From: Lewinellaceae bacterium
Lineage (GTDB): Bacteria; Bacteroidota; Bacteroidia; Chitinophagales; Saprospiraceae
Direction of reading: 5' to 3'
Length of the DNA: 64,000 nt
Assembly: GCA_020636025.1 (NCBI GenBank)
Contig: JACJYQ010000001.1
Span: 417,163 to 481,162 of the forward strand
The position numbers and the translations under genes are program-made. Under the pieces are notes generated by a model, which was not told where the DNA came from, ran no database searches, and saw nothing but the letters and a program-made list of their open reading frames with translations. Positions 1-63,755 of the stretch are shown piece after piece (position 1 is the first letter of the stretch; every line of letters begins with the position of its first letter).

Positions 1-124
1 GATCAGGGAGAATCCGGACAGGTATAGGGGGAAATCCGGACTTTATGGGGGAGTATCCGGACAATGAGGGGGGATATTCGGACATTTGAGTGCGGAGTGC
101 GGAGAGCGGAAAGATGAGGAGTGC
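1..124. repeat. Composite 7-nt-phased tandem repeat: four ~21-bp units (GGGGG-NN-ATCCGGAC-N5; 6-26, 27-46, 47-67, 68-89), then heptamers GTGCGGA GTGCGGA GAGCGGA AAGATGA GGAGTGC (90-124). It runs off the left window edge.
   Basis: Read directly. Unit spacing is 22/21/21 nt for the ATCCGGA/ATTCGGA cores at 12, 34, 55 and 76. The heptamers abut the HTCS stop codon (125-127, minus strand). Confidence 0.85.
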
Positions 125-3100
125 TTAGACTTCGGAGGGGAGTATGCCGAATCTGGATTTATAGAGTTTGGTGAAATGCTTGGTATCCTTGAAGCCTACC
201 TGGGCGGCTACTTGTTTTACCAGGGCATTTCCACTCTCCAGTAATTCTCTGGCCTGTTGCAGGCGCGCTTCCTGTATGTAATGATTTAGTGTCAGGCCAG
301 TAGTGGTCTTTACCCGGCGCTGCAGGTGCCTGCTGCTCATGTTTAACTGAGCTGCCAGGTAATCTGAATTGAAGTTGAAATGGTGCAGACTTTTATTGAC
401 TATCAGCTCTAATTCCTGAAGCCAGATAGAATCCTCTTCTGTAATCAGGACCTCTAAGGAACCTTTGGGTTGGCTCTCGATGTCAGGATCCAAAGAAAGA
501 GTAGCTTTCCTACGTCCGGATCTGTTGCGCGAATTTTCGAGCAGGTTTTTTATCCGGGCCATCAGTTCTTCTTCTACAAATGGTTTTAGCATATAATCGT
601 CCACACCTAATTTCAAACTGCGCAATTTTACCTTGATGTCTGATCTGGCTGTGAGCATTATAAATGGTATATGCCGGAGATGATCTTTTTCTTTTACCAT
701 TTCCAGCATGGTGATGCCATCCATGATGGGCATCATGACATCTGAAATGATCAGGTCAGGCCTCAGCCCTTCCAGCAACTTATCCAGTCCTTCCTTTCCA
801 TTGCCTGCACAAACAATGGTGTACTTGTTATCCAGGAAAGATTGCATGAATTGCTGAAGATCAAGGTTATCTTCTACGATTAATATTTGAGAACGCCTGT
901 CATTTTCAATGTCAGGACTGGCTGCTGGCATAAGTCCGTTTTTGCTTTCCTCGTGTTGGTTTTCGAGGTCTACTGTAAACTCTTCCTGCTCAGGGCTCGG
1001 GAGGTTTTCAGCTTTTTTGAATGGTATCCGCAAATAGAATTTACTGCCAGAACCATATTTGCTGTCAACCCAGACTTCTCCGCCCATTAACTGGGATAAT
1101 TCCTTGCAAAGAGAAAGCCCGATCCCTGTGCCCCCCTGTGTAATGGCGTCGGGTTGATTGGACTGATAGAAGCGATCAAAAATGTACGGAAGGTCTTTTG
1201 CGTGAATGCCCGGGCCCGTATCTAAAACCGTAACAAGGAGATCATCTTTTTCCTTTTCCACAGTCAGATCAACATGCCCGCCCACCGGGGTGAATTTTAT
1301 GGCATTGGACAAAAAGTTATTGATGATTTTTTCATATTTGTCTTTATCCAGCATCAGGGTTGTTTCCCTGGGCAGTTTAAAATGCATGTTAAAGTGAACC
1401 CGCTCACTGTCGCCAAATGAGCTGAACTGAGCGGAAAGTGGTTTGAAGAATTCTAGCAGCTTTACTGGCGTTTCTTTTAACTCTATTTTCCCTGTTTCCA
1501 GTTTTGACAGGTCGAGGATCTCATTCACCAGTTTTAAGAGCAGTTTCCCGTTCCGTTGCATCATTTGAAGCAACATCATGTCCTTTGTTTTCCAGGCTCC
1601 TTTTTTTATAAAATTCTCCAGAGGTCCTAGCAACAGGGTTAGTGGCGTACGAAGTTCATGACTGACATTGGCGAAGAACCGGCTTTTTAGCTTGTCGAGT
1701 TTTCTAAGTTCTTCTGCTTGCTCGGCAATGGTTGCTGTTCTTGTTTGTACCCTCTCTTCTAGTGTTCTGTTTCTCTGCTTCAGGCTATATGTGTGATACC
1801 TGACATACCCCATTATGGCGGCTGTGATTAACAGCAGAATGAGCAATATAAACCAGGTTTGCAGATAAAATGGTTTTAACACTCTGAGGTTAATAGCCAG
1901 CTCATTTTCTGACCATTTGCCACTGGCATCCTGACCTTTTATGCGCAAAATATGATTGCCAAAAGTCAGGTTTGCAAAGCGCAGCGTGTGTTCCTTTTGA
2001 TATATCCAATCCTTGTCAACCCCTTCAATCTTATAAGCATAAAAATTCTTTTCGGGTTTGTCATAGGTCAAGAGGGAAAATTCAATTTTGAATATCCGGT
2101 CAGAAGGTTTTACCGTAATTGTATTGGTGCTGCACAATTCGATAAATCGATCCATCATTTTATTTGTCGAACCATCGAATTGCTCGAAATGGGTAATGGC
2201 CAATCGTGGATTTATATAATCCTTTGTCCTCAACTCCCGGGGATGGAAATCACTGATGCCGTTTATAGAGCCAAAATAAATACGGCCATCAGAATCCTGA
2301 AAATGAGAAGTTCGGTTGAATTCGTTGTTGCAGATACCATCCTGTTCAAGATACGTAGTCACATTTTTTGACTTTGTATCAAAACGCATGATGCCGTAAT
2401 CACTCGATAGCCAAAGGTTCCCAACAGAATCCGGGTACACAGCATAAATCACATTGTTTGACAATCCATCCACCCTGTCGTAGTGTTCCAGATAAGGGTT
2501 CTGGTCGGATCCATCTCCTTTCGGCCACAAGCGGAAAAGGCCTTTATTGGTACCCAGCCAAATACTCTGATGCTCATCAACATAATCATGATACACGATA
2601 TCTGCAGGCAATCTATATTTATTTTCACCTTCCTGCCAATAACGCTCAACAATGCCCTTGTTCAAATTTACCAGAAAGTAACCTTTTGATGTACTTAAGT
2701 ACAAGTTGTCGCCATCTTCTCTGAAACGATAAACGAATGCATTCTCGAGCGCCTTAAAGCGCTCATCTGCCGAACTTTTGAACAGAAAGCCTTCATTAAA
2801 ACTGTACTTGCCGAAACCATTCTCTGTTCCAATCCATATATTACCATCGGCTGCTTCCTCAATATTCCAGACTATGGCGCCAGGTTGCCTGGTGGAATTC
2901 AGAATTTTTCCATTTGGGTCTATTAGCTTGACCTGAGTTCCTAGATTAACGGCAATATTGCCATCTCTTAAAACCTTTACAGCAATATAATAACTGCTCT
3001 GGGTTTCCTTGAATATTTGAGTGGCTATACCGGTATTGAGGTTAATACGGTGTAATCCTTTTACTTCCAGTTGACAATACAAGTTATTATCATCCTTGTC

Positions 3101-4159
3101 AATTGACCTTACCGCATTGCCTCCGTATTGAATACTACCGGGTTTGGTGAGCAGATTGTGGAATCGTTTTGTTTTGAAACTGAGTTTATATAGCCCAAAA
3201 TTAGCGCCAACCCAGAGCGTGTGATTCTTAGCCAAACAATGACCTCTGCCAAAATTTTTATCCAGGTTTATCGATTTGTCATCTAGCTCATAAACCTGTT
3301 TTTTGGCCTGGTTTATAATCTTTCCACTATGCCATAACAAGGTAGAATCACTCTGTCCCCATAAATCCTGTAGAGGAAAATAATCTTTTGAATTAGTATT
3401 GAACAAATTGGTCAACTCACCATTTTGTATAAGGAAGCAGGTTGCTATTTCAGACTTATTGATCGTATTTAAATAGAACAAACAAGGATCAAATCGCACG
3501 ATCCTGAGTGTTTTGGAAATACCGGATGTGTTTAGCGGATAGGTTTTCAGAATATTTCCAGATTTATCCGCTTTTACAGCCTTTTGCTCGGGCAGATTAA
3601 TCCCCCAGACAAAATCGGAGACATGAATTATACTGCTTACCCCTTTAGGGGCGGGAATTTTGACAAGCCCTGATCCAGGGTCATAATGCCAGATATTGGT
3701 ACCCTCAGGTTCGATCAGATATATCTCGCCTTTAGAGTTTGTGGAAATATTTAGATTTTCGAGCTTTGGGAGCTTGTAAGCACTGAATTTTTCCAGGAAA
3801 GTGGTCCTTTCACCGGTTCTCGGATTCCAAATGTCAAAATCTGTGGCTGACATTGGAGGTATCAGCCATAAAAACCCCTGACTATCTTCCAGGATATCAA
3901 AAAAATTATCACCGAGAAATCCATATCTGGAAGCGGGGAATGGTACAAACTCGTATCCATCAAATCGGCAAAGTCCCTCTTTTGTACCTATCCAGATAAA
4001 CCCTTCATGGTCTTCACAAATGCCGTTTACCTCTCTGTGAGGCAGTCCATCCTCAATGCCGTAATGCTCAGCCTGGATAAACTCTCCCTGGGCTTCTGCA
4101 TGGAAAGTTAATCCGCAAAAACCAATTAGACAGATAAGGAAGGATAAGCACAAGCGCAT
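125..4159 (-). CDS. Hybrid two-component system sensor kinase/response regulator with AraC-type output (HTCS)
   Basis: 1344-aa ORF with ATG start and signal-like N-terminus MRLCLSFLICLIGFCGLTFHAEA. It has a long propeller/Y_Y_Y-type periplasmic region, a TM segment (WFILLILLLITAAIMGYV) and a HisKA H-box (FFANVSHELRTPLT). It also has an ATPase G-box (GTGIGLSLCKEL), a receiver domain (ILIVEDN...ISDVMMP) and a C-terminal AraC HTH. Confidence 0.9.
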   Translation of the reverse strand: MRLCLSFLICLIGFCGLTFHAEAQGEFIQAEHYGIEDGLPHREVNGICEDHEGFIWIGTKEGLCRFDGYEFVPFPASRYGFLGDNFFDILEDSQGFLWLIPPMSATDFDIWNPRTGERTTFLEKFSAYKLPKLENLNISTNSKGEIYLIEPEGTNIWHYDPGSGLVKIPAPKGVSSIIHVSDFVWGINLPEQKAVKADKSGNILKTYPLNTSGISKTLRIVRFDPCLFYLNTINKSEIATCFLIQNGELTNLFNTNSKDYFPLQDLWGQSDSTLLWHSGKIINQAKKQVYELDDKSINLDKNFGRGHCLAKNHTLWVGANFGLYKLSFKTKRFHNLLTKPGSIQYGGNAVRSIDKDDNNLYCQLEVKGLHRINLNTGIATQIFKETQSSYYIAVKVLRDGNIAVNLGTQVKLIDPNGKILNSTRQPGAIVWNIEEAADGNIWIGTENGFGKYSFNEGFLFKSSADERFKALENAFVYRFREDGDNLYLSTSKGYFLVNLNKGIVERYWQEGENKYRLPADIVYHDYVDEHQSIWLGTNKGLFRLWPKGDGSDQNPYLEHYDRVDGLSNNVIYAVYPDSVGNLWLSSDYGIMRFDTKSKNVTTYLEQDGICNNEFNRTSHFQDSDGRIYFGSINGISDFHPRELRTKDYINPRLAITHFEQFDGSTNKMMDRFIELCSTNTITVKPSDRIFKIEFSLLTYDKPEKNFYAYKIEGVDKDWIYQKEHTLRFANLTFGNHILRIKGQDASGKWSENELAINLRVLKPFYLQTWFILLILLLITAAIMGYVRYHTYSLKQRNRTLEERVQTRTATIAEQAEELRKLDKLKSRFFANVSHELRTPLTLLLGPLENFIKKGAWKTKDMMLLQMMQRNGKLLLKLVNEILDLSKLETGKIELKETPVKLLEFFKPLSAQFSSFGDSERVHFNMHFKLPRETTLMLDKDKYEKIINNFLSNAIKFTPVGGHVDLTVEKEKDDLLVTVLDTGPGIHAKDLPYIFDRFYQSNQPDAITQGGTGIGLSLCKELSQLMGGEVWVDSKYGSGSKFYLRIPFKKAENLPSPEQEEFTVDLENQHEESKNGLMPAASPDIENDRRSQILIVEDNLDLQQFMQSFLDNKYTIVCAGNGKEGLDKLLEGLRPDLIISDVMMPIMDGITMLEMVKEKDHLRHIPFIMLTARSDIKVKLRSLKLGVDDYMLKPFVEEELMARIKNLLENSRNRSGRRKATLSLDPDIESQPKGSLEVLITEEDSIWLQELELIVNKSLHHFNFNSDYLAAQLNMSSRHLQRRVKTTTGLTLNHYIQEARLQQARELLESGNALVKQVAAQVGFKDTKHFTKLYKSRFGILPSEV

Positions 4160-4455
4160 AAACAGAAGGAATGTGTGTAATAGTCCTTTCTGATGGGATA
4201 AAATAAATCAGTATTTGGTAGTATTCCCGGTTTCCAGGTAAGGCAGGTCGAAAGATTGAAAAGCAAATGTACAAAGCGACCGATAAAAATAAAATTAACT
4301 TAAGTGAGCGTGACTATTTAAGGAGCAATTATCCTCTTTGCCGTTTTCAGACACATTTTCTTTCCAGCAATTTTGACAAATGTTGTTGTTTTACGACTCA
4401 AAGAGTTTGTTCTTTAAACGACTTAACCAATCAAACTTCTGTAAATAAATTTCTG

Positions 4456-7400
4456 ATGAAACTATTTCAAACCTGCCTTACTGTACTGATGCTGTCGGGT
4501 TTCGGCCTGCAGGCGCAGGATTATTCTGGAGTTATTCAGCGATATATGCTGGAGAACAGAGATAAATTGCAACTCGTGCAGACGGATATCGAAAACTGGA
4601 ACGTATCTGATCAGTATCTCACCAGGCACAACCAGGTGACCCATGTTTATCTCCAACAAACCGTCAACGGACTGAAAATACATAATGCCATTAGTTCAGT
4701 TGCGATTCAGAACAATGAAGTCAAATCCTTCAGCTCCGCCTTTCACGCAAATGCTGCAGAATTGACGAACGTTTCTGCCGGAGAGGAACATATATCGCCC
4801 AAAGAGGCGGTATTGCAAGCGGCAAATTCTGTAGGTATCACGATTGGAAATCCCGGCAACCGCAATACTGAGCCAAATGACAATAATGAATTTATTTTTG
4901 ATCCTTCAGGAGATGTATCAGCGCCTATAAAAGTATCCTTGTTATATCAGGCAACAGACGAAGATATTCGCCTTGCCTGGAACGTGGAACTGCAAACGGG
5001 AAGTGACTGGTGGAATATCCGCGTAGATGCTATCTCGGGGGAAGTGTTGGATAAAAACAATTACACGGTTTATTGCGAATTCTATGAAGATGCTTTTGAA
5101 ACAGACGGGACTAATCGCCATATACATGACTTTGATAATCAGGTTGTTGCCCAAAAAGTAAATACGACTCCATTTTATCGTGTGTTTCCTTTTCCGGGTG
5201 AAAGTCCGCGACATGTATCTCATACGCTTCTTAGTGACCCATCGATCCAACAGGCATCTCCTTATGGCTGGCATGATGTGGACGGGCAGCCTGGCGCAGA
5301 GTACACCATTACCCGTGGAAATAACGTATATGCTTCAGAAGACAGAGATGACAACAACAATCCGGGGTATAGTCCGGACGGAGGCGCCAGTCTGAATTTT
5401 GATTTCCCCTACACACCGGAAGTAGCCCCTGTTTTCTGGGAAAATGCCGCCATTACCAACCTGTTTTATGCCAATAATTTTATGCATGATGTGACATACA
5501 TCCATGGATTTGATGAGGCTGCCGGGAATTTTCAGGAAAACAATTATGGAAATGGTGGACAAGATGGTGATTTCGTGTGGGCCGATGCGCAGGATGGCTC
5601 AGGTACCAATAATGCCAATTTCTCCACCCCTCCGGATGGTAATAATGGACGCATGCAAATGTACATCTGGGATGTAAATAGCAGTGGGGGAGGTGACAGT
5701 ATGTCCATCAACATCCCAGGCAATTATCCGGATAAATTTAACGCTCCTGCCTCCAATTTCGGAGCAGTGTTGGGTATGCCCCTCACAGCCGATGTCGTGT
5801 TGGTAGATGATGGTGTAGATCCGACAATAGATGGTTGCCAGCCTATTATCAACGGTTCCGAATTGGCAGGAAAGATAGCCTTGCTTCAAAGAAGTGGTGT
5901 TTGCACTTACCCTGAAAGGGTGAAAGCTGCTCAGGACGCCGGAGCCATCGCAGCCATTGTGATGCAGAACACCAGTGCTCCTGCATTTCACATGCCTGGC
6001 GCCGATCCCGAAGTGGTCATTCCTTCATTTATGGTAAGCAAAGCACATGGACTTATCCTTACTGATGCACTTGTTGCGGGTACGCTAAATGTGACACTGT
6101 ATCCTACCTGCTGTAACTCAGACCGCGATAGTGATGTTGATAACGGTGTTATTGCGCACGAGTTTGGACACGGAATTTCCAATCGCCTTACTGGTGGACC
6201 TAGCAATACCGGCTGTCTGGGAAATGAGGAGCAAATGGGTGAAGGCTGGAGTGACTTTTTTGCTTTGATCACCACCATGCAACCGACGGATACCCGCTTC
6301 ACAGCCCGTGGAATTGGCACTTATGTTGAAAATCAGCCGCCAACCGGCGCCGGAATCCGGAATAAACGCTATTCCACGGATATGGCCGTAAATAATTACA
6401 CCTATGGATTGCTGGAACAGACTAGCGGTCAGGTGCACAATATTGGCGAATTCTGGTGTACCATGCTGAATGATTTAACATGGGATCTTATAGACCAATA
6501 TGGTTTTGAGCCCGACCTGACAAAATCTACCGGTGGTAATAACATAGCCATGCAACTGGTTCTGGACGGCATGAAGTTGCAGCGTTGCAACCCAGGATTT
6601 GTGGATGGACGGGACGGTATCCTGAAAGCAGATGAAATGAACTTTGGAGGCGCGAACAAATGTCTAATATGGCAAACATTTGCCCGTCGGGGTCTGGGCT
6701 GGTCTGCCGACCAGGGAAGCAGTAACGATTACGCTGACGGTGTGGAGGCTTTTGATCTTCCACAGTTTTGCATGACGGCAACTGTCGAGCCACTTGCTGT
6801 CTTCGGGGTAGATCGAAAAAATAGTTGCCTGGATCTGGCAACCTTCCATTTCTTCGACAGCTCACAAAACATTGTGCATGAATGGCTTTGGGATTTTGGT
6901 GATGGACAAACATCGACTGATATAAATCCTGTACATACCTACGCACAGGAAGGTACCTACACAGTTACCCTTATGGTTACCAACAACATTGGGTCGAATT
7001 CATTGGTGAAAACAGATTATATCAATGTAAGCAGCTTCGCACCCATTACTGTATCCACAGATAGTATATGCGCCGGACAAACTGCTACGATTACGGCCAA
7101 TCCAAATATAGCCGGCAATACGGCTGAATGGACAGATGAAAACGGAAAGGTGTTGTTTTCTGGTGACAGCTTCACCACACCAATATTGACGCAAACGACC
7201 ACTTTTTATGTTAGCGAGTCTGAACCAGCGCCTATCCAGCATGTAGGCCCGGATGACTTTGGAGATGGACAAAATCACTCATCACAATTTGGTGGTTTTG
7301 TGAGATTTACGGCTGAAAAACCATTAACCATTATTTCCGTTCTGGTACGAGCAGAAGGCGAAGGCGTGCGGGAAATTCTCCTGATTGACGGATTTGGCGC

Positions 7401-8195: not shown

Positions 8196-8283
8196 GATAT
8201 ACGAGATACAAAATCCGAGATATGATATTTGAAATTATCAAAAAAATCGGATTTCGTATCTCGGATTTCGTATCTCGTATATC
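8196..8283 (+). terminator. Long inverted repeat (27-nt arms, 26/27 complementary) built from heptamer-like units. Probable terminator hairpin after the protease gene.
   Basis: Left arm GATATACGAGATACAAAATCCGAGATA (8196-8222). Right arm TATCTCGGATTTCGTATCTCGTATATC (8257-8283). The right side also holds a direct 14-mer CGGATTTCGTATCT x2 (8248-8275). It starts 6 nt after the TAG at 8188-8190. Confidence 0.5.
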
Positions 8284-20794: not shown

Positions 20795-21010
20795 ATGAAA
20801 TTATTCCTCCCAATTTTACTTTTTCTTTCCATGTACGGCCTTTCAAGCTGTTCGGATGGTGAAGCCGCAAAAAAAGCCGAAGCCGAAGCTGCTGCTGCTA
20901 AAGAGGCCGCCACTCTTGATTCATTAAGTATGGAACTCGAGAAAAAAACTACTGAAATTGAAAAGGATGTTCAGAGCCTTGAAGAAGGCCTAAAGGAAAT
21001 TGAAGAGTAA
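20795..21010 (+). CDS. Small lipoprotein, Ala/Glu/Lys-rich helix (71 aa)
   Basis: Lipobox-like MKLFLPILLFLSMYGLSSC followed by a charged helical sequence. Confidence 0.55.
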   Translation: MKLFLPILLFLSMYGLSSCSDGEAAKKAEAEAAAAKEAATLDSLSMELEKKTTEIEKDVQSLEEGLKEIEE

Positions 21011-21733: not shown

Positions 21734-21835
21734 ATACTTAACTGGGTGATTCAGGAGGTAAATGTGTTCATCATTCGTTGTTCGATGTTCCCTTTACTGC
21801 CTATGGCACTCTTAATCAGTTAGTTAAAATATGAC

Positions 21836-23787: not shown

Positions 23788-23827
23788 TTTACTCAGGGAA
23801 AGAATAAATGACTAGAGCTTAAATAAC

Positions 23828-23862
23828 AAAAGCCTCACAATCGTTTGATTGCAAGGCTTTTT
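23828..23862 (+). terminator. Rho-independent-type terminator
   Basis: AAAAGCCT-CA-CAATC gttt GATTG-CA-AGGCTTTT hairpin (one 2-nt internal mismatch) ending in a T-run, 40 nt after the TGA at 23785-87. Confidence 0.55.
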
Positions 23863-23865
23863 GTG

Positions 23866-23937
23866 TAGTCCGTACGGGAATCGAACCCGTGTTTCATCCG
23901 TGAAAGGGATGTGTCCTAACCCCTAGACGAACGGACC
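23866..23937 (-). tRNA. tRNA-Glu (anticodon UUC), 72 nt, CCA not encoded
   Basis: Folded by hand as GGTCCGT-TC-GTCT-AGGGGTTA-GGAC-A-CATCC-CTTTCAC-GGATG-AAAC-ACGGG-TTCGATT-CCCGT-ACGGACT-A. All four stems pair (G1:U72 wobble). It closely resembles bacterial tRNA-Glu. Confidence 0.9.
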
Positions 23938-23954
23938 TTTCGTTTAAAGCGGGG

Positions 23955-23962
23955 CAAAGATA
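23955..23962 (-). promoter_or_regulatory. Candidate -7 box TATCTTTG for the tRNA-Glu gene
   Basis: On the minus strand TATCTTTG lies 17 nt upstream of the mature tRNA 5' end, with a TTG about 17 nt further upstream. Confidence 0.45.
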
Positions 23963-24009
23963 ACATCCTATTTTTCATTCAACCAAGAAGTTTTTATTTT
24001 TTATTTTTT

Positions 24010-27628: not shown

Positions 27629-27823
27629 ATGATTATTGAATCAATCAACGAAATTGAAGTATCCGACGCCGAAATTATGGATACAATTGTAATGGAAGAT
27701 GAAACAACTGATGCAGAATCTACAGAATCTGACGATTTTGATGATTCTGACGATGTTGACGATTCAGATGACGACTCGGAGGGCGACGACGATATGGAGT
27801 CGGAGGATTCAGAAGAAGCCTAA
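27629..27823 (+). CDS. Hyper-acidic small protein (64 aa, roughly half Asp/Glu, no basic residues)
   Basis: ATG start. Sequence ...DETTDAESTESDDFDDSDDVDDSDDDSEGDDDMESEDSEEA. A 15-bp-stem hairpin begins 21 nt after its stop. Coding status is not proven. Confidence 0.45.
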   Translation: MIIESINEIEVSDAEIMDTIVMEDETTDAESTESDDFDDSDDVDDSDDDSEGDDDMESEDSEEA

Positions 27824-40145: not shown

Positions 40146-40188
40146 TAGGGTTCTCGGAAATGTACACAGATTTTTGCCCCAGATTCAT

Positions 40189-40204
40189 CGCAGATTTTTC
40201 TGCG
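40189..40204 (+). terminator. Weak hairpin CGCAGA-tttt-TCTGCG after the type-B T9SS gene
   Basis: 6-bp stem with 4-nt loop followed by TTATATAT. It lies inside three direct CAGATT repeats (40166-40199). Confidence 0.3.
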
Positions 40205-52944: not shown

Positions 52945-52976
52945 TATCAATGTATCAATGTATCAATGTACCAATG
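52945..52976. repeat. Octamer tandem array TATCAATG x3 + TACCAATG
   Basis: Read directly. It lies between the TIM-barrel gene stop (52985-87) and the GMC start (52922). Confidence 0.9.
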
Positions 52977-53857: not shown

Positions 53858-53932
53858 GGCGGGAGTAGATTTGGTAATACGCAAATGTATACACGCATTG
53901 CATATTTCCAAAACAAGTTTACCCAAAGGAAG

Positions 53933-53968
53933 AATTAGCTAATTGGCTAATTAGCCAATTAGCTAATT
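53933..53968. repeat. Perfect 36-bp palindrome made of 8-mers AATTAGCT AATTGGCT AATTAGCC AATTAGCT AATT
   Basis: Reverse complement checked by hand and identical to itself. It begins 3 nt after the prfB stop (53972-74, minus strand). Confidence 0.9.
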
Positions 53969-53971
53969 CAA

Positions 53972-55082
53972 TTAATCTACTTCTTCAACGATACCTGTCG
54001 GGTTGCGTTCCCACATGAGGTAGGCTTTTAAAAACTCCTGGAGATCGCCGTCAAGTACTGTGTCGGGATTGTGTACTTTGTATCCAGATCGAAGATCTTT
54101 CACCCACCGGTCGTCCAATACATAAGAACGTATCTGACTTCCCCATTCGATTTTGCTTTTTCCTGCCTCTATCTTGTCCTGCTCAGCTTGTCTTTTTCTG
54201 AGCTCCAGTTGATACAAGCGGCTTTTTAGCATGGTCATTGCCGTGTCTCTATTCCTGTGCTGACTGCGGTCTGCCTGACATTCTGCAACGATGCCGGTAG
54301 GTATGTGCGTAACACGAACGGCCGATTCGGTTCTGTTTACGTGCTGTCCACCCGCACCAGAGGCGCGGAAAACATCCCATTTCAGGTCATCCGGATTGAT
54401 TTTAACTTCAATTTCATCATCCTCAATAAGTGGGTAGACAAAAACTGATGCAAATGAAGTCTGGCGTTTACCCTGGGCATTAAACGGGCTTACCCGTACC
54501 AGACGGTGTACTCCGTTTTCACCTTTCAGCCAACCATAGGCGAAATCGCCTCTTATTTCCAGGCTGGCAGATTTAATACCTGCCGCGTCGCCATCCTGTT
54601 CAAACAGGTCAACAACTTTGTAACCGGCTCTATCGGCATACATTCTATACATACGCAGCAACATAGATGCCCAGTCGCAGGCTTCTGTTCCACCTGCGCC
54701 AGCATTGATGGTAAGCACCGCGTTCATTTCATCCTCTTTTTGATTGAGGGTGCTTCGGAACTCTGCATCAGCGAGGATCTGTGCAGTTTTGTTGTATTGT
54801 TCATCAACTTCGGCTTCTGTGGCCATGCCCTCTTTTTGGAATTCAAAGATTCCTTCTGTATCGTCTACAGAGCGGGCCAGCTCTTCATAAGATTCTAGCC
54901 AATTTTTGTTGATGCCAAGCTTTTTTTGAATGGATTCGGCTCTTTTGGGGTCATTCCAGAATGCTGGGTCAAGTGTTTGACTTGACAGGTCTTCGACTTC
55001 TCTTTTTCGGTTATCGACGTCAAAGATACCTCCTTAAGACCGCCAGCTTATCCTTCAACTCTTTCAGTTGTTCGATTGTCAT
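53972..55082 (-). CDS. prfB: Peptide chain release factor 2, requires programmed +1 frameshift
   Basis: ATG 55082. Frame 0 reads MTIEQLKELKDKLAVLRRYL, then TGA at 55022-55020. The +1 frame continues DVDNRKREVEDLSSQTLDPAFWNDP... in frame with the tracked 284-aa ORF (55021-54826 = 195 nt). SPF (VSPFNAQ) and GGQ (SGAGGQHVN) motifs are present. Confidence 0.9.
55019..55037 (-). promoter_or_regulatory. RF2 autoregulatory +1 frameshift site
   Basis: Minus-strand sequence TTA AGG AGG TAT CTT TGA C. This is an internal SD-like AGGAGG, a 3-nt spacer, slippery CTT and an in-frame TGA followed by C. Confidence 0.9.
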
Positions 55083-55101
55083 GGAAACGGAAAAATTTTA
55101 A

Positions 55102-55136
55102 TGATCAGAGGTTAGTGATCAGTGATTAGTGGTTTA
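55102..55136. repeat. Heptamer tandem array TGATCAG AGGTTAG TGATCAG TGATTAG TGGTTTA (consensus TGRTYAG)
   Basis: Read directly. The last unit overlaps the FKBP gene stop codon (55134-36). The array ends 20 nt upstream of the prfB ATG. Confidence 0.8.
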
Positions 55137-57037: not shown

Positions 57038-58045
57038 TCAAGTTGCCAGGAGTTGCTCTTTAATTTCCGGTAAAATACTCCGGAATTTTTCAATGGTATC
57101 CTTAAGGCTACTGTGTGAGTAGGCACCAGAGGCGTTTTTATGTCCACCTCCGTTAAAATGTTTCTTACAGATTTCCTGTACATCCAGGTCGCCTTTTGAA
57201 CGGAGGCTTAATTTTACAACGGTGGGTTGATTGTGAATAAAGGCCGCCAGCCGAACCTCCCGAATACTCAGCAGATAATTAACTATCCCTTCAGTATCGC
57301 CACGTTGAATATTGAAGGTTTCATAATCTTTCTTGGAAAGCCATATCAGAGCGGTACGGAATTCCGGCCAATACTCCATTCTGTTTGCCAGGCAGTGGCC
57401 AAGCAGACGGAGGTTTTTTTCCTCATTGGAATTGAAGATCATATCCTGAACAGCCGTATCATCGGTACCTCTTTCTACAAGATCTGCTGCAATTCTGTAC
57501 ACGTGTGGATTGGTGGCATGGCGAAAGGAGCCTGTATCGGTGATCAAACCGGTCAATATACATTTTCCAATTTGTGGTGTGATCCTCAATTTATCGCCAA
57601 GTCCATCTATGAATTGATAGACCAGTTCGCATGTACTGCTGGCTTCCGGTATTGAATATGTGAAATCGGCTACATCCTCCGGGTACAGGTGATGGTCGAT
57701 CATGATACGTTTGCCAGGCAGGTCTTTCACAAAGTCGCCTAATTTATCTATTCTACTGAGAGCATTGAAATCGAGAAAAAAGAATAAGTTCTTTCTGGAA
57801 AGCACCTCTTTGCTTTCTTCTGTATGTATGTCCCAAATCAGGATGTCTCCTGCTCCGGGTAGTGCTTCAAATTCTTTTGGAAATTCAGATGGAAAAATAA
57901 TGTGTACCGTATGGCCGTATTGCTCAAGGTACATGCGCATGGCAATAGAGCTACCAATGGCATCTCCATCCGGGTTTCGATGGGATAAAATTGCCACATT
58001 TTGTGGGATGCGTATTAACTGGCGTAGCTCGGTCGGAAATTCCAT
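57038..58045 (-). CDS. DHH/DHHA1 phosphoesterase (NrnA-like oligoribonuclease/pAp phosphatase)
   Basis: ILSHRNPDGDAIGSS, MIDHHLYPE (DHH) and NGGGHKNASGA (DHHA1 GGGH) motifs. ATG 58045 is preferred. The tracked start 58210 adds a Lys-rich translation of the intergenic region. Confidence 0.8.
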   Translation of the reverse strand: MEFPTELRQLIRIPQNVAILSHRNPDGDAIGSSIAMRMYLEQYGHTVHIIFPSEFPKEFEALPGAGDILIWDIHTEESKEVLSRKNLFFFLDFNALSRIDKLGDFVKDLPGKRIMIDHHLYPEDVADFTYSIPEASSTCELVYQFIDGLGDKLRITPQIGKCILTGLITDTGSFRHATNPHVYRIAADLVERGTDDTAVQDMIFNSNEEKNLRLLGHCLANRMEYWPEFRTALIWLSKKDYETFNIQRGDTEGIVNYLLSIREVRLAAFIHNQPTVVKLSLRSKGDLDVQEICKKHFNGGGHKNASGAYSHSSLKDTIEKFRSILPEIKEQLLAT

Positions 58046-58165
58046 GTACAATGCTTTTTTGAAAAGCATGCAAAAGTACAGGTTCAAACCCTGAATGCCT
58101 TTATTGCCAGAGAATATTTTTTTATTAAGCTCTTTTTCTCCTTTTTTTGAAATTAAATCTTGCGT

Positions 58166-58173
58166 TACCTTTG
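58166..58173 (+). promoter_or_regulatory. Candidate -7 box TACCTTTG upstream of ndk
   Basis: TAnnTTTG match 103 nt upstream of ATG 58276. Confidence 0.3.
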
Positions 58174-58275
58174 CAGCCTTTTTGGAGAGGTTCGGGGAAT
58201 TTGAACCCATACCAGAAACTTCTTGCCATTTAAAGCGAATCAGAATTCAATATTTTTTAAATTTTCAACCTAAAC

Positions 58276-58689
58276 ATGACACGAACTTTCACCATGATCA
58301 AGCCTGACGCAGTTCGCGCAGGGAACATTGGCAATATTCTTCAGATGATCAATGCCGCCGGATTCCGGATTGTAGCAATGAAACTGACGAAACTTAGTAT
58401 GGAAAAAGCAGGCGAATTTTATGCTGTACACAAGGAGCGTCCTTTTTACGGGGAACTTTGCGAATTTATGAGCAGTGGTCCTATCGTAGCCGCTATTCTC
58501 GAAAAAGACAATGCCGTAGAAGATTTCCGCACCTTGATTGGAGCCACTAATCCTGAGCAGGCAGCGCCTGGTACCATTCGTGCCATGTATGCAACCAGCG
58601 TTGGCGAAAATGCTGTACACGGGTCAGACAGCAATGAAAACGCAGCTATAGAAGGCGCATTCCATTTTGCGGGTGTAGAAAACTTCTAA
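58276..58689 (+). CDS. ndk: Nucleoside-diphosphate kinase
   Basis: [11 protein letters not shown]..., active-site NAVHGSDS. 137 aa. Confidence 0.95.
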
Positions 58690-58701
58690 TTGAAGTCAAC
58701 A

Positions 58702-58780
58702 TCAATCCTATATTCCCTGCATAAAAAAAGCCGCCAGGGTTTTAACACCACGGGCGACCTTAACGGGAATATAGGATTGA
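58702..58780. repeat. 16-bp perfect inverted repeat with 47-nt spacer downstream of ndk
   Basis: TCAATCCTATATTCCC (58702-17) / GGGAATATAGGATTGA (58765-80). An A-run follows on the plus strand. It lies between the ndk stop and the stop of the minus-strand CTD fragment. Confidence 0.7.
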
Positions 58781-58819
58781 AAAAAAGAGTAGTTGTCTCT
58801 TTTCTTGGGGGGATATATT

Positions 58820-59269
58820 TTAATACATCATCAGTTTTCTGCTTGCAGTGCCAAATGGAGTTTCCAAACGGCAGGTATACATTCCGGGCTCAATGAAGTC
58901 TGAGCGATGCAGGATCATGTGATGCTCTCCGGTTTCGTATTGACCTGATTTAGAACTTACTTCTTTTCCCAGGGCATCGAATATCCTCAACAAAACGTTG
59001 GCATTGGAAGGTATCCGGAACCATAACAAAGTCATTTCAATGAATGGATTGGGGGAGTTTTGGAGAAGTTCCACACTGCTTTCTGTGGGTAGATTAATTG
59101 GCGAAACGTTACTTTGTGCGGTCATTTTACGAACATGGAGCCTCCGAAGCGCTGCTTTCTCATAGAAACTATTCGGGACTATTGGCGGTGAAAATGGATA
59201 ATGGCCTGGAGTCGAAGAATTAATCTCAAGTTTTGTGCCAATTTGATTGATAACTATAATCCTTATCAA
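58820..59269 (-). pseudogene. Orphan T9SS type-A C-terminal sorting domain, likely a remnant of a larger secreted protein gene
   Basis: The last ~85 aa (LLQNSPNPFIEMTLLWFRIPSNANVLLRIFDALGKEV....EPGMYTCRLETPFG) look like a T9SS CTD. The N-terminal 60 aa have no signal peptide and the ORF opens with TTG. Confidence 0.45.
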
Positions 59270-59425
59270 CTTTTGTTGTTAAACCATTCTACATACTTCG
59301 AGTTGTGATTTGATAAAAGGAAAACTGATCAGGATCAGGACAGGCTTATGTAGAATTATTTTGCAGGGTGTTGCAGCCTCTGTATTTTTACAAATTGAAT
59401 ATTTCACGTTTGAAAAATTAATACC

Positions 59426-60067
59426 ATGGGAACTCAAGTAAAGCTCAAAGGACAAGGTCGTTTATTCAAGAATCCAATACTGGAGTCTTTTACAAAGTCA
59501 TCACCTCTTGAATCTACTATCAGTTCACTGGGAATTGCCGTATTTTGTATTTGGATGGGGAAAGAACTAGGGGCGCATTTCGAATTCTGGAATGTGTTCT
59601 GGTATTTTACAGCAGGTTTGGTATTCTGGAGTTTGGCTGAATATTTATTACACCGTTATGTATTTCACCTGACTGATGAAAACTTTAAGGGGGGGGATCG
59701 ATTTGCCTATATTCTGCACGGTGTTCATCACGAATATCCAAATGATGCACAGCGCACTTTGATGCCGCTTTTACCAAAGCTTATTTTTTCTACCCTATTT
59801 TTTGGTCTGTTCTTCCTGATTCTTGGTAAAGCTGGAGCTTTTTTCTCTGCTGGCTTTTTGATGGGTTACTACTTTTACTCCATCATGCACTACTCAATTC
59901 ACCGGTTTAAAGCACCCAAGTTTTTGAAACCACTTTGGGAACATCACCATCGTCATCATCACCTGGAAGATGATAAGGCATTTGGTGTTTCATCCAGAAT
60001 TTGGGATCGATTGTTCAGAACTATGCCTTCTAAAGTGAAGAACAAGTCCAAAGTGGCTGAAATGTAA
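59426..60067 (+). CDS. Fatty acid hydroxylase superfamily membrane protein, FA2H/Scs7-like (no cytochrome b5 domain)
   Basis: Four His boxes: EYLLHRYVFH, ILHGVHHEYPND, HYSIHR and WEHHHRHHH. The first two blocks resemble eukaryotic FA2H EYLIHRFLFH...HGQHHKAPFD, recalled from memory. Confidence 0.75.
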   Translation: MGTQVKLKGQGRLFKNPILESFTKSSPLESTISSLGIAVFCIWMGKELGAHFEFWNVFWYFTAGLVFWSLAEYLLHRYVFHLTDENFKGGDRFAYILHGVHHEYPNDAQRTLMPLLPKLIFSTLFFGLFFLILGKAGAFFSAGFLMGYYFYSIMHYSIHRFKAPKFLKPLWEHHHRHHHLEDDKAFGVSSRIWDRLFRTMPSKVKNKSKVAEM

Positions 60068-60109
60068 TTGCCAGATATTGTATTTGGTTAAACAAGTTCT
60101 TTATTATTC

Positions 60110-60153
60110 AAACTACCAGAATGTTACAGAATACATTCTGGTAGTTTTGTTTG
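60110..60153 (+). terminator. Rho-independent terminator
   Basis: AAACTACCAGAATGT tacagaat ACATTCTGGTAGTTT followed by TGTTTG. 15-bp perfect stem, 42 nt after the stop. Confidence 0.75.
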
Positions 60154-60212
60154 TATAATGCCTAAACCGTCGCTGCGAAATTGGCTTACAATACCGGCGT
60201 GGTTTTCTACAT

Positions 60213-60974
60213 TTGTATTCAAATCAAATTTTGGTGAGAACATTCAGGAAAATTTGGACAGTGTGGGCGGTAACCATATTTCTGGTTATGATGTTTTGCA
60301 GTCTACCCATCATTGGGTTGAATATGATGGTTACGCCCGGCAGAAGAGCCTTGCGTAACAACATCTATTTTCTTCACCACATTTTTACGCCTTTTTTTCT
60401 ATTCATTGTTGGCATCGCAGTTCAGGCTGAAGGCCGGCGAAAACTCAATCGCAAGCAATCCTATGTGATTGTCGGAAATCACCGATCCTCCATTGATTTT
60501 ATCGTTCATGCCCATGCCTTCCCTGGTGTATTCCGGTTTTTGGCAAAACAGGAATTGTTGAAAATTCCTGTTTTTGGGTTGATCGTACGAAAAATGTGTT
60601 TGATCGTGGATAGAAGCAGCCCTATGAGCAGAGCGAGAAGTGTGGTTGCCTTAAAACAGCAGTTGGAAGATGGCTGGAGTATTATGATATATCCGGAAGG
60701 AAGCCGCAATCGCAAGCCCGAAGCTCTTGGTCAGTTTTACGATGGTGCCTTTCGCATCGCCATCCAAACCAAGGCACCTTTAGCAGTTCAAACTTTCGTG
60801 AATGTCTCTGAAATGACCGGAGCTGATGGTTCCGGACTTCGCCCAGGTATTGCCAGAGTCGTGTGGGAAGAGCCAATTCCTACTGATGGAATGACTGCTG
60901 AAGATATACCTGCCTTGCGCAGTAAGGTGGAAGACATGATGAAAAACCGAATTAAAGCTTATTCGAAAAGCTGA
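60213..60974 (+). CDS. 1-acyl-sn-glycerol-3-phosphate acyltransferase family (PlsC/LPLAT)
   Basis: H-x4-D motif (VGNHRSSIDF) and YPEGSRN block. The start is uncertain: the tracked start is TTG 60213 and the first ATG is at 60288. Confidence 0.8.
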   Translation: MYSNQILVRTFRKIWTVWAVTIFLVMMFCSLPIIGLNMMVTPGRRALRNNIYFLHHIFTPFFLFIVGIAVQAEGRRKLNRKQSYVIVGNHRSSIDFIVHAHAFPGVFRFLAKQELLKIPVFGLIVRKMCLIVDRSSPMSRARSVVALKQQLEDGWSIMIYPEGSRNRKPEALGQFYDGAFRIAIQTKAPLAVQTFVNVSEMTGADGSGLRPGIARVVWEEPIPTDGMTAEDIPALRSKVEDMMKNRIKAYSKS

Positions 60975-61951
60975 TGATAGTCGTTGTTATCCCTGTCGAG
61001 CGTAACAGGCGGTTCTTTTAATTCCAGTTTTTGTTCATCTTTTTTTTGCTTCGTGCTACCGGCATGATCCATGCGTAATAGCGGGCTGTCTCTTTCCCAG
61101 CGCTCCAAAAGCTCCAAACCTTCTTCCTCAAAAACGCCGTTTTGTAAATCTATGCTGTCCATCAGGTTTCTGCTGGTATCCATAAAGCGTTCCATTTCTC
61201 CAACTTTAGAACCAACATCTTCGGCCAGTGTTTCCATGGCTGATTCGAACATCGCTTTCTTGTCTGGGTCACCAGACAAGACGCTCATGGCAGATTTCAT
61301 AGCGCTGTGTCCACTCTTAATTACCCGGTACTCCTGTTCCTTTATTTTAATCTGATCCTGAGTGTCTTCGAGTACCAATTCCGAACTTTCATACATTTTA
61401 GTCAGTATGCGCTTCAGGACGTCCATCCTTTTATGCAGGTCTTGATATTTCTCATTGGCATCTTGTAACCTTCCCGCTTTTCTGGTAGCCAACGCCATAT
61501 TCTTATCCTGACCTTTCTTTTTCGCTTCCTCAGCAATACTGAGGTTCATTTTGATGTCATTCAGGTTTTTTTGCATCAAACCTTCCAACTGGCGCATTTG
61601 CGCTCTAAGCACTCCAATTTGTTTGCTAAGCTTTGTCAGATTTGATCTCAGATCACTTAGGTAGGACTTTAAAATTGATATCGGATCAATCTTGACAAAC
61701 AACCCAGTAATTCCGCGCATAATGGACTTATACAGATACCAGACCAGATTTCTGGATTTGGGATCAAGAACCATGTAGACAACGACTCCTAAAGCCGCCA
61801 ATAGTCCGGCCAGCGTCAAAGTATTGCTGGCAAGGGCTACCAGGGTAGGCAAAATGCTGCTCCAAAACACCCCGATACCCACGATGGCGCCAATTAAAAA
61901 GATAACTCCGGTTACACCTTCCGGTCTCCTCCAAAACGACTTTTGTGACAT
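60959..61951 (-). CDS. Membrane-anchored coiled-coil protein, possibly PspA/IM30/ESCRT-III-like
   Basis: Two predicted TM helices (GVIFLIGAIVGIGVFWSSIL; LAGLLAALGVVVYMVL), then ~200 aa of heptad-rich helix starting IDPISILKSYLSDLRSNLTKLSKQIGVLRAQMRQLE, and an acidic tail. Confidence 0.6.
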   Translation of the reverse strand: MSQKSFWRRPEGVTGVIFLIGAIVGIGVFWSSILPTLVALASNTLTLAGLLAALGVVVYMVLDPKSRNLVWYLYKSIMRGITGLFVKIDPISILKSYLSDLRSNLTKLSKQIGVLRAQMRQLEGLMQKNLNDIKMNLSIAEEAKKKGQDKNMALATRKAGRLQDANEKYQDLHKRMDVLKRILTKMYESSELVLEDTQDQIKIKEQEYRVIKSGHSAMKSAMSVLSGDPDKKAMFESAMETLAEDVGSKVGEMERFMDTSRNLMDSIDLQNGVFEEEGLELLERWERDSPLLRMDHAGSTKQKKDEQKLELKEPPVTLDRDNNDYHQLFE

Positions 61952-61993
61952 GTTTTTACTGAATTTCAGGACCTGATCCTGGCCCAGTACATT

Positions 61994-62539
61994 TTACAGG
62001 TACTTATGCATATTTTCCACATCCTTATCTATTTGCAAAAGAACAGCTTTATTGGTTTTCTCGAAATTGACTTTTGCCTTTTCAAGTTTTTCAGCTTCCT
62101 GCTTACTGGTGTTTTCTGCCTGATTTACCTGATTTAGATAATCTCCCATCTCGTTATTCAACCTTTCAATTTCGGCCTTATGACGATCTATCTGATCGCG
62201 CAATCTCGAAATTTCATGTTGCCTTGAAGCAATTTTGGTCTTGCTCTGGTTTTCAAGCGCCTCGTTAAACTGACCCATTTCCTTTTCAATCAGGTTGCGG
62301 TAATAGCCGGCGGTTTCCAGCAGCTTTTCTTTGGTAATACCTAAGGTCGCTGCAGTTGTTACCGCGCTTTTGTAGGCTGTTGGTTCATCCAGATTTATTT
62401 CCTGAAGTTGCAAGACAGCCCTTTTGAATTCAAGGTAATCGAAGCCCGGTAAATTGTTTGATTCAAGCGCCTGTACCAGAAAATCGAGACTTTTTTCGTC
62501 CAGATCCTCAGATTGGAACATGGATTTTATTGTAAGCAT
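61994..62539 (-). CDS. Small all-helical/coiled-coil protein (181 aa), unknown function
   Basis: ATG start and no signal peptide. The C-terminal half is heptad-rich (RLRDQIDRHKAEIERLNNEMGDYLNQVNQAE...). It lies 42 nt upstream of the 330-aa gene on the same strand. Confidence 0.6.
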   Translation of the reverse strand: MLTIKSMFQSEDLDEKSLDFLVQALESNNLPGFDYLEFKRAVLQLQEINLDEPTAYKSAVTTAATLGITKEKLLETAGYYRNLIEKEMGQFNEALENQSKTKIASRQHEISRLRDQIDRHKAEIERLNNEMGDYLNQVNQAENTSKQEAEKLEKAKVNFEKTNKAVLLQIDKDVENMHKYL

Positions 62540-62545
62540 AAACTT

Positions 62546-62573
62546 GAGTGGTGAGAGATGAGAGATGAGAGCG
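62546..62573. repeat. Heptamer array GAGTGGT GAGAGAT GAGAGAT GAGAGCG
   Basis: Read directly, 7-34 nt upstream of the ATG at 62539 (minus-strand gene). The 10-mer GAGAGCGGAA (62567-76) also occurs at 102-111. Confidence 0.8.
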
Positions 62574-62688
62574 GAATAAATTGACTGGGTAAAATTAATG
62601 ATAAATGCCCATCAGGGTTAGCTGCAAGTCGACGGTTTAACCAATTTATCGGTTAAAATTCAATTTGACCCATGAAAACAATTTTATT

Positions 62689-62765
62689 TCCGCACTCCGC
62701 ACTCCGCACTCCGCACTCCGCACTCCGCACTCCGCACTCCGCACTCCGCACTCCGCACTCCGCAC
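62689..62765. repeat. Perfect 11-copy heptamer array: (TCCGCAC)11 on the plus strand, (GTGCGGA)11 in pfkA sense
   Basis: Counted base by base: 77 nt with no substitutions. It directly abuts the pfkA TGA (62766-68), and the minus strand reads TGA GTGCGGA GTGCGGA... Confidence 0.95.
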
Positions 62766-63755
62766 TCACTGCGCCAAAATATGCGCCATCCTCAAAAGCT
62801 CCTTGTTGAAAGTCTTTTTCTTGGAAATGGCATCTTCAAAGGTTGTATAGTGGATGTTGTTATTTCTGATGCCAACCATTACGCTATTTTTACCTATGAG
62901 TAGGGCTTCAACGGAGGCAAAACCCAAAATAGAGGCGAGAACTCTGTCGAATCCGCTGGGCGATCCGCCGCGTTGAAGGTGACCAATTACGGTTACTTTA
63001 ATATCGTCGTACAGGTCAATTTGCTTGCCTACATGGTCTGCGATATCATACACGGTTCCCATTTTGTTTCCCTCTGCAACAATCACTATGCTAAACAGCT
63101 TGGCTCTTTTTGCACTGCGTTTGAGCAGCCGTACCAGATCATCAAGTGAAATGTCTTCTTCTGGAATCAGCACCCCACCGGCTCCCGCTGCAATGGCTGT
63201 ATGTAAGGCGATATATCCGGAATGGCGGCCCATCACTTCTACGAAAAACAAGCGATTGTGTGAGTCGGCCGTATCCCGGATCTTATCGACAGCCTCAACA
63301 GATGTGTTTACCGCAGTATCAAATCCAATTGAAAAATCAGTACCGTAAAGATCGTTGTCTATGGTACCTGGAATGCCAATCATTTTGAAATCGGGATATT
63401 CTTGCAAGAACTTGTTTGCACCTGTAAAAGTACCATTGCCACCTACGGCAATTAAAGCATCGATATCATGATCCCGAAGGTTTTCATAAGCGATTTTTCT
63501 GCCTTCTGGTGTCATAAAACGCTTACTTCTAGCGGTTTTTAGAATGGTGCCGCCTCGGTGAATAATGTTGCCTACATCCGATGTTTCCAGCCTTTTGATG
63601 CTGCCTTCGATCATGCCCTCATACCCACGGTTGATTCCATAAATGTGCAGATCATTATTAAAGGCATTACGAACAACTGCACGGATGGCAGCATTCATAC
63701 CAGGTGCATCACCTCCTGAAGTTAGGACAGCAATTCGTTTTATCTCTTTTGACAT
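62766..63755 (-). CDS. pfkA: ATP-dependent 6-phosphofructokinase
   Basis: VLTSGGDAPGMNAAIR, PGTIDNDL and MGRHSGYIAL motifs. 329 aa. Confidence 0.95.
   Translation of the reverse strand: MSKEIKRIAVLTSGGDAPGMNAAIRAVVRNAFNNDLHIYGINRGYEGMIEGSIKRLETSDVGNIIHRGGTILKTARSKRFMTPEGRKIAYENLRDHDIDALIAVGGNGTFTGANKFLQEYPDFKMIGIPGTIDNDLYGTDFSIGFDTAVNTSVEAVDKIRDTADSHNRLFFVEVMGRHSGYIALHTAIAAGAGGVLIPEEDISLDDLVRLLKRSAKRAKLFSIVIVAEGNKMGTVYDIADHVGKQIDLYDDIKVTVIGHLQRGGSPSGFDRVLASILGFASVEALLIGKNSVMVGIRNNNIHYTTFEDAISKKKTFNKELLRMAHILAQ

Follow-up and report, generated by a model that had tools for sequence, protein, structure and literature searches.

The question raised by the DNA stretch under study is why short tandem repeats stand directly behind the stop codons of several unrelated genes, and whether they serve any function there. 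The stretch (referred to as the window) comprises 64,000 nucleotides with a G+C content of 43.7% from contig JACJYQ010000001.1 of the Lewinellaceae bacterium assembly GCA_020636025.1. An initial annotation had described arrays of 7-8 nt units behind the stops of six genes, coding for a hybrid two-component regulator (HTCS), an M36 protease, a TIM-barrel protein, release factor 2 (prfB), an FKBP, and the pfkA product. These arrays exist, exceed chance, are non-coding, and show a bias toward gene 3' ends, a variable number of copies, and turnover from lineage to lineage. They are probably slippage-generated intergenic simple-sequence repeats ("long SSRs"), dominated by heptamers, which persist where selection permits.

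Repeat Structures in the Intergenic Gaps

By the use of Tandem Repeats Finder (TRF) and by direct reading, repeats were found at all six main loci. They are listed here together with one array that had escaped notice before and with one doubtful stretch.

62689-62767, minus strand: (GTGCGGA)x11.3 on the sense strand, after pfkA; reported by TRF as TCCGCAC with 100% matches and a score of 158
62552-62571, minus strand: (TCTCATC)x2.9, reading TGAGAGA on the forward strand; found by TRF, absent from the initial annotation
55098-55131, minus strand: degenerate heptamers CACTAAT/CACTGAT/CACTAAC/CTCTGAT x4.3, after the FKBP gene; 69% matches in TRF, 85% as a 14-mer
53932-53969, minus strand: perfect 38-nt palindrome of AATTAGCT-type octamers, after prfB; 19-nt arms, 100% complementary, 0 nt spacer
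52945-52976, minus strand: octamer array (CATTGATA)x4, after the TIM-barrel gene; 95% matches in TRF
8196-8283, plus strand: inverted repeat after the M36 protease gene; 33-nt arms at 8196-8228 and 8251-8283, 91% complementary, left arm 5 nt after the stop
88-110, minus strand: sense-strand heptamers TCCGCTC-TCCGCAC-TCCGCAC x3.3, located 14 nt behind the HTCS stop; 93% matches in TRF
6-84, minus strand: 21-nt-period repeat x3.7 of the GTCCGGATnnCCCCC type, beyond the HTCS heptamers; 73-78% matches in TRF
21764-21791, plus strand: weak xTGTTCx x4 stretch in a convergent gap, 30 nt behind a stop; period-7 self-match 0.62 vs. 0.31, P = 0.0065 (post hoc)

The description as simple tandem arrays fits only some of the six loci. 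The set is mixed and consists of direct arrays (GTGCGGA, CATTGATA, CACTRAT, TCTCATC), two hairpins with periodic arms (the palindrome at prfB and the inverted repeat at the M36 locus), and one 21-nt-period repeat, which makes up most of the HTCS locus. Two weaker loci had been proposed in addition. One of them (40166-40199, read as CAGATT x3) is not tandem (P = 0.36-0.95 against shuffles), and the other, at 21764-21791, gives only the weak post hoc signal listed above, is not reported by TRF at a score of 30, and is a doubtful member of the set.

With a period of 5-11, a minimum of 2.9 copies, and a match rate of 75% or more as the definition of an array, 7 arrays are present in the 35 window gaps of at least 20 nt (4,013 nt), vs. 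a mean of 0.07 and a maximum of 1 in 200 dinucleotide shuffles. The degenerate FKBP array shows a period-7 self-match of 0.66 vs. 0.29 in shuffles (P < 0.0005). All period-7 and period-8 arrays reported by TRF in the window are intergenic, and two repeats with multiple-of-3 periods in apparent gaps are actually located inside small open reading frames (ORFs). The first of these ORFs (27629-27823, plus strand) codes for a strongly acidic product of 64 aa rich in Asp, Glu, and Ser and carries a 9-nt coding repeat; the second (20795-21010, plus strand) codes for 71 aa with a lipoprotein-like signal peptide and carries an AAGCCG coding repeat.

The survey was extended to a pooled set of about 1.15 Mb, consisting of the window, the loci L137 and L140-L142, and 80 loci from metagenomes that surround a homologue of pfkA. 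This set contains 58 intergenic arrays in 97 kb vs. 42 arrays in 1,051 kb of coding sequence, corresponding to an approximately 15-fold higher density in the gaps, and 34 of the 58 intergenic arrays have a period of 7. The density amounts to about 1.4 arrays per intergenic kb in the window, to 0.8-1.3 where the identity of pfkA is 61% or more, and to 0.39 in remoter Bacteroidota.

As judged from the 64 kb of the window, the arrays do not belong to one dispersed family of repetitive extragenic palindromes (REP) or miniature inverted-repeat transposable elements (MITE), as had been stated from the start. No second copy of any element was found in the window; for the palindrome of prfB and the inverted repeat of the M36 locus, this holds even when up to 2 mismatches are allowed. 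TCCGCAC alone recurs within the 64 kb, and every other unit is confined to one locus. The proposed NNNCGGA flavor of three loci is reduced to this one exact unit, TCCGCAC/GTGCGGA, which is common to the arrays at 88-110 and 62689-62767 (13 matches vs. 0.25 expected) and is present there in opposite orientation relative to the upstream genes.

A scan of 185,579 genomes for exact (GTGCGGA)x3 returned at least 120 stretches (L011-L130). Among the matches listed, the hosts include Verrucomicrobiota, Planctomycetota, Chloroflexia, Acidobacteriota, Gemmatimonadota, Calditrichia, and Bacteroidota, and several arrays occur within 8 kb (four in L121, three in L060) or across several contigs. The scan covered this one unit, and the ORF heuristic is unreliable in its high-GC loci; we draw no inference from it on GTGCGGA as a special unit.

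Placement at the 3' Ends of Genes

The link of the arrays to the 3' ends of genes is real and extends beyond the window. Within the window, the claim that each array begins within about 8 nt of a stop codon held for pfkA, where array and TGA stop (62766-62768) share 2 nt, for FKBP (2 nt), for prfB (3 nt), and for the TIM-barrel gene (8 nt). It failed for the HTCS locus (14 nt) and for the tandem part of the M36 repeat, which lies 56 nt from the stop in the right arm (8247-8280; a 14-mer x2.2 with 100% matches or a 7-mer x3.9 with 80%). The prfB repeat is reported by TRF at 53933-53968 as an 8-mer x4.5 with 85% matches, 2-3 nt after the stop. As arrays of 32-36 nt in window gaps of 45-53 nt are necessarily near a stop, the three cases of this kind weigh little. 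Many co-directional gaps of the window are about 40-55 nt long, with an array or without one; the gap between the FKBP gene and prfB measures 51 nt because prfB starts at 55082.

In those co-directional gaps of the pooled loci that leave an array 30 nt or more to move in, a start at most 5 nt from the stop was observed for 8 of 25 arrays vs. 1.09 expected (P of about 2e-5), and just one of these 25 starts at most 5 nt from a start codon. With 60-aa gene calls, 7 stop-adjacent arrays are found vs. 1.46 expected (P = 3e-4), and 5 vs. 1.14 if the gaps flanking pfkA are left out (P = 0.0036). Independent of any start-codon calls, convergent gaps contain 1.5, co-directional gaps 0.77, and divergent gaps 0.20 arrays per kb (convergent vs. 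divergent, P = 2e-5). The systematic placement at gene ends that had been proposed for the window is therefore borne out in the pooled loci by convergent enrichment, divergent depletion, and an abutment to stops above that of uniform placement.

Copy Number Variation and Turnover of Units

An identical pfkA protein is encoded on ten contigs, and those spanning the array with unique flanks contain 2 (L001), 11 (the window), 14 (L008), and 15 (L010) copies of GTGCGGA; the truncated contigs L005 and L009 show 12 copies or more. The L001 contig (JAWKLU010000002.1, GCA_041392585.1, with proteins named "Saprospiraceae bacterium") is 99.5-100% identical to the window in the overlapping stretches, and its 2-copy allele may represent a collapsed assembly. 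Homologues of pfkA bear Saprospiraceae or Lewinellaceae names. The source species is covered by 64 kb plus about 11 kb. In three samples of a sister species (pfkA 86% identical), a TGAGTGA array consists of 5 units twice and of 6 units once, and a 16-mer array has 3.75 vs. 1.75 copies between samples. The predicted proneness to slippage thus applies to these arrays, differing by whole units in the sister species, and not to the octamer loci: those of prfB and the TIM-barrel gene are unchanged in 9-10 assemblies (9 for the TIM-barrel gene). The M36 locus is unchanged in 5 assemblies and the HTCS locus in 6, and the FKBP array is the same in L001. Instability is thus seen in long perfect arrays, whereas 4-copy arrays, which are short or imperfect, are stable.

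Contigs from short reads end within the pfkA array (L002-L010) or begin at or near the prfB palindrome (L230, L231, L233). The pfkA array and the palindromes are thus sites where short-read metagenome assemblies break or collapse.

A comparison of orthologous gaps gave a divided result. Arrays of other units were found in the pfkA gap of relatives, and the arrays of the FKBP, prfB, and TIM-barrel genes are absent in the syntenic locus L236. Reading from stop to start, the pfkA gap consists of TAG TTCG (AACAACT)x3.3 AAA ATG in L137/L139 and of TAA (TCATTCATCTCTCA)x3.9 TCC ATG in L140, and L141, encoding the same pfkA protein as L140, has a shorter version of the (TCATTCATCTCTCA)n array. The relatives' units TCTCTCA/TCATTCA in the gap between pfkA and the gene for a 181-aa protein differ from GTGCGGA but are related to the TCTCATC array of the window. 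The TCTCATC unit of the window is a rotation of the L140 unit TCTCTCA, so that the TCTCATC array may be inherited, whereas the GTGCGGA array is specific to the species of the window. L236 keeps the gene order FKBP-FKBP-prfB-TIM barrel-GMC, and its gaps contain ordinary hairpins instead of arrays, one of them with a U-tract. Other arrays are located elsewhere in L234 and L235, several of them abutting stops.

Heptamer-periodic inverted arms follow pfkA in the remoter loci L145, L149, and L156, and hairpins with tandem-repeat arms amount to eight cases in the window and its relatives. Facing reverse-complementary arrays, each beside a stop and together forming a hairpin with tandem arms, were observed at L145 7766-7838, L137 13061-13205, L235 189-393 (189-238 and 313-393), and L149 16600-16669; these gaps are convergent except for that of L149. 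The unit of the L145 pair is TTTAGGG, the sequence of the plant telomere repeat.

Origin of the Arrays

We infer that slippage acts as the generator of the arrays and selection as the filter. Replication slippage would create and resize arrays of 7-8 nt units, and each locus would amplify whichever short unit it already held, which would explain why the units differ between loci. Indels that are not multiples of 3 would be tolerated solely outside of coding sequences and of promoter or leader signals. A tandem duplication with its left edge at or after a stop codon would spare the upstream protein, whereas one that falls into a coding sequence or a promoter or spans a start codon would usually be harmful. 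If the stretch after the stop is permissive in this way, arrays should abut stops and be common in convergent and co-directional gaps and rare in divergent ones. Under purifying selection, they would accumulate where a stop meets the signal that follows it, being commonest between facing stops and rarest between two promoters. The recurrence of inverted array pairs in relatives suggests that slippage may act on post-stop hairpins as well; two of the six loci have arms with 7-8 nt periodicity, and template switching between the hairpin arms would keep these matched. The increase in stability with decreasing array length is the behavior expected of slippage, provided that its rate depends on array length.

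Intergenic heptamer repeats have been known for decades from cyanobacteria, Xanthomonas, and Beggiatoaceae, and no function is generally agreed on for them. The arrays described here show the defining features of long SSRs, a class already known. For this class, with units of 5-11 nt, heptamers have been described as the commonest, and polymerase slippage has been proposed as their origin (Mrazek, Guo & Shah 2007, as summarized in PMC4679880). As far as that summary goes, both share head-to-tail arrays beyond chance, a heptamer mode, the non-coding location of units that are not multiples of 3, and copy changes by whole units. The survey as summarized there stressed Burkholderia, cyanobacteria, actinobacteria, and Xanthomonas and does not include Saprospiraceae. 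In the arrays described here, nearly each locus has its own unit. The placement resembles that of the GGGAATC and GGGGA(C/T)T repeats of Xanthomonas and Nostoc, which are intergenic, of unknown function (Rehm et al. 2015, PMC4692102), prefer co-directional genes with few copies between divergent ones, and mostly lie 0-50 bp from a stop or overlap it (PMC4692102). Common features are the location near stops, the scarcity in divergent gaps, the variation in length between relatives, and the ability of inverted arrays to form stem-loops. Unlike these families, with one or two G-rich quadruplex-forming units at hundreds of loci and a preference for four units, the arrays studied here have diverse units and follow no strand rule. 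G-tracts for quadruplexes are missing in GTGCGGA, CATTGATA, CACTRAT, and TCTCATC, and runs of G3-G6 occur only in the repeat at 6-84, on the plus strand and 15-18 nt apart. The feature of one unit at many loci, typical of the short tandemly repeated repetitive (STRR), GGGAATC, and TAACTGA families, is not seen within the 64 kb. New aspects are the Saprospiraceae lineage, the coexistence of diverse units, the population evidence of copy change, the turnover of units in orthologous gaps, and the hairpins with tandem arms.

Several observations weigh against a purely neutral origin. The abutment at 0-5 nt from the stop exceeds uniform placement and fits a neutral model only if the rest of the gap is assumed to be constrained. 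Array-bearing gaps are not longer than usual, so that the arrays take the place of spacer sequence instead of adding length. The recurrence of TCCGCAC at two loci 62 kb apart is improbable by chance. The gap between pfkA and the next gene contains arrays in three species with 84-86% pfkA identity, with TCTCATC/TCTCTCA in two of them, suggesting a persistence longer than predicted for neutral debris. Finally, the sample of arrays is small, and the genes in the related loci of the pooled set were called by an ORF heuristic. The tight abutment, the persistence in the pfkA gap, and the shared unit are the reasons for which each of the readings with a selected function is kept at a low, non-negligible probability.

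Alternative Explanations

One of these, which appears unlikely, regards the post-stop arrays of Saprospiraceae and other Bacteroidota as a selected element, serving both as register-tolerant building blocks of terminators and as slippage-tunable spacers that set read-through or the expression level of the gene that follows. Hairpin arms consisting of tandem units could pair in many registers and so withstand changes in copy number. Should the arrays influence termination or the expression of genes downstream, they would represent a simple evolvable control element in bacteria lacking initiation based on Shine-Dalgarno (SD) sequences. A role in closing reading frames by providing stops in all three sense frames was considered and rejected (14 vs. 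7, P = 0.19).

Another reading, which we consider unlikely, takes the arrays as selected length-tunable spacers of the contingency type, altering read-through from the upstream gene or the geometry of the downstream promoter or 5'-untranslated region (5'-UTR). The precedent is the 5'-UTR array (ATCTTTC)n of hmw1A and hmw2A of Haemophilus influenzae, which can tune expression in inverse proportion to the number of heptamers (PMC12721329). The pfkA locus resembles this case in its perfect heptamer array of at least 11 units upstream of a gene, its natural copy polymorphism, and the breaks in short-read assemblies. Further support comes from the hypervariability of this array between samples, shared by the arrays of the sister species, from the position of the arrays after stops and 6-150 nt before the next start codon (149 nt for the pfkA array), and from their retention in the gap between pfkA and the 181-aa gene in three species. 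However, the H. influenzae genes code for adhesins, and their array base-pairs with a G-rich segment to give a long hairpin that is processed by RNase III, whereas the neighbors here are housekeeping or unrelated genes (pfkA, prfB, FKBP, TIM barrel, GMC) rather than surface or virulence genes. An equivalent hairpin between the GTGCGGA and TCTCATC arrays was rejected, as the fold of the whole gap is not significant (z = -1.03) and the pairing is missing from the centroid structure. The three 4-copy arrays, invariant in 9-10 assemblies, and the syntenic relative L236 without arrays in the matching gaps also speak against tunable spacers. A scan of the window for sigma-70 promoters was uninformative for Bacteroidota.

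Quite unlikely is a role of the arrays as cis-acting RNA platforms in 3'-UTRs or leaders, offering multivalent sites to a single-strand binder such as ribosomal protein S1, a cold-shock protein, or Rho. Bacteroidota hardly use SD sequences and initiate translation on another basis, and such platforms would be useful where SD-based initiation is lacking. The length of a heptamer corresponds to the footprint of a domain with an oligonucleotide-binding (OB) fold. The direct arrays are unstructured: the CATTGATA array, located 8 nt after the TIM-barrel stop and 13-22 nt before the start of a GMC oxidoreductase gene, gives z = 0.14, and the TCTCATC array, 12 nt before the start of the gene for the 181-aa coiled-coil protein (61994-62539), is free of G on the sense strand and folds with a minimum free energy of 0 kcal/mol. 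In total, 9 of 13 arrays at most 25 nt from a start codon are G-free on the sense strand; a G-free leader or translational enhancer was nevertheless rejected, since this share is not significantly above the upstream-of-start background of 0.446 for 7-mers (P = 0.066). A loading site for Rho, expected to be C-rich and G-poor like a Rho utilization (rut) site, was rejected as well, because stop-adjacent arrays contain more G than C in 14 cases vs. more C than G in 8 (P = 0.29) and show no A/T bias either. Moreover, the unit differs at nearly each locus, which argues against a sequence-specific binder, and TCCGCAC is present in both orientations relative to the upstream gene.

A platform of this kind has been proposed for the TAACTGA arrays of Beggiatoaceae, cyanobacteria, and five Bacteroidetes (PMC4679880), which show 7-nt indels and cause contig breaks (MacGregor 2015, PMC4679880). 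The FKBP array, read in another register as TCACTGA/TCACTAA, is one mismatch away from TAACTGA, in the same ("forward") orientation and 15 nt before the prfB start, comparable to cases in Flexibacter litoralis and Beggiatoaceae (PMC4679880). A CAACTGA x4.3 array is located at L234 5622-5651. Common to both groups are heptamers in the gaps of genomes with few SD sequences, located partly before starts and partly after stops, together with contig breaks and 7-nt indel steps. The TAACTGA family differs in having a single unit at up to 169 loci that mostly abuts starts, whereas many units are found here that mostly abut stops.

That all arrays are transcription terminators or 3'-end stabilizers, in line with the initial suggestion of a terminator or 3'-UTR element, is very unlikely, and only the two hairpin loci are terminator-like. 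The prfB palindrome (-25.2 kcal/mol, z = -9.2) and the M36 inverted repeat (-49.3 kcal/mol, z = -8.0, with period-7 structure in both arms) form very stable, terminator-like stem-loops 2-5 nt after the stops. At prfB, the terminator scan flags 17 pairs with the U-rich tail UUCCUUU. Inverted array pairs form hairpins in convergent gaps of relatives, and ordinary post-stop hairpins occur in other gaps of the window. In contrast to Rho-independent terminators, however, the stems are 17-33 bp long, AT-rich, and periodic by 7-8 nt, and the M36 stem is not followed by a U-tract. The direct arrays GTGCGGA, CATTGATA, CACTRAT, and TCTCATC showed no hairpin potential on folding and are thus not intrinsic terminators; they have no stem. 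Arrays are also located within a co-directional gene string with gaps of 45-53 nt, and the terminator scan of the window overall was not above shuffles.

An origin of the arrays from assembly errors or from a dispersed mobile element is extremely improbable: although short-read contigs often end in the pfkA array or at a palindrome and the 2-copy allele of L001 could be collapsed, the same arrays are found with unique flanks on both sides in independent NCBI, ENA, Logan, and JGI assemblies, contigs assembled at k = 141 span arrays of 98-105 nt, and, unlike REP, bacterial interspersed mosaic elements (BIME), or MITE, no multi-copy palindrome is present in the window, each element being single, and the arrays match no known RNA family in a scan with Rfam 15 at the gathering score.

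Further Features of the Loci

The HTCS gap is a C-rich spacer of 441 nt before a co-directional gene, as seen from the full gap in L131-L135, in which three TCCGC[AT]C heptamers are followed by four 21-nt units in matching 7-nt phase. The 21-nt repeat represents either a higher-order derivative of the heptamers or a set of operator sites. It has a TCCGGA core (GTCCGGATnnCCCCC x4), and repeats with a TTCCGGAA core at spacings of about 12/21 nt follow an HTCS gene of another Saprospiraceae genome (L235 11112-11151). Instead of simple-sequence repeats, these could be candidate operators bound by the AraC-type output domain. The two HTCS genes, with an identity of only 31%, were not accepted as orthologues and are regarded as paralogues; their downstream genes are unrelated.

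In L236, a similar stretch of about 70-100 nt is present at 3488-3738 and 5785-6001 (GTAACTGG...GGCCCAAAAAGG.../...CCAGTTAC), in gaps that correspond to some of those in the window. From its sequence, it looks like a small dispersed inverted-repeat element of the MITE type.

The gene labels of the window agree with Pfam, which identifies PFK, FKBP, RF2 (PCRF plus RF-1), a xylose-isomerase-like TIM barrel, and two GMC oxidoreductases; precomputed Pfam matches on related loci served to identify the M36 protease and the HTCS. The prfB gene contains the canonical +1 frameshift site AGGAGGTATCTTTGAC at about 55018-55035 on the minus strand (AGGAGG TAT CTT TGA C), including the SD-like AGGAGG. The sole match of the Rfam scan in the window is a tRNA gene (23866-23937, minus strand, 62 bits). 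The gap around it (23788-24009) is convergent and contains a stem-loop just upstream of the tRNA gene on the plus strand.

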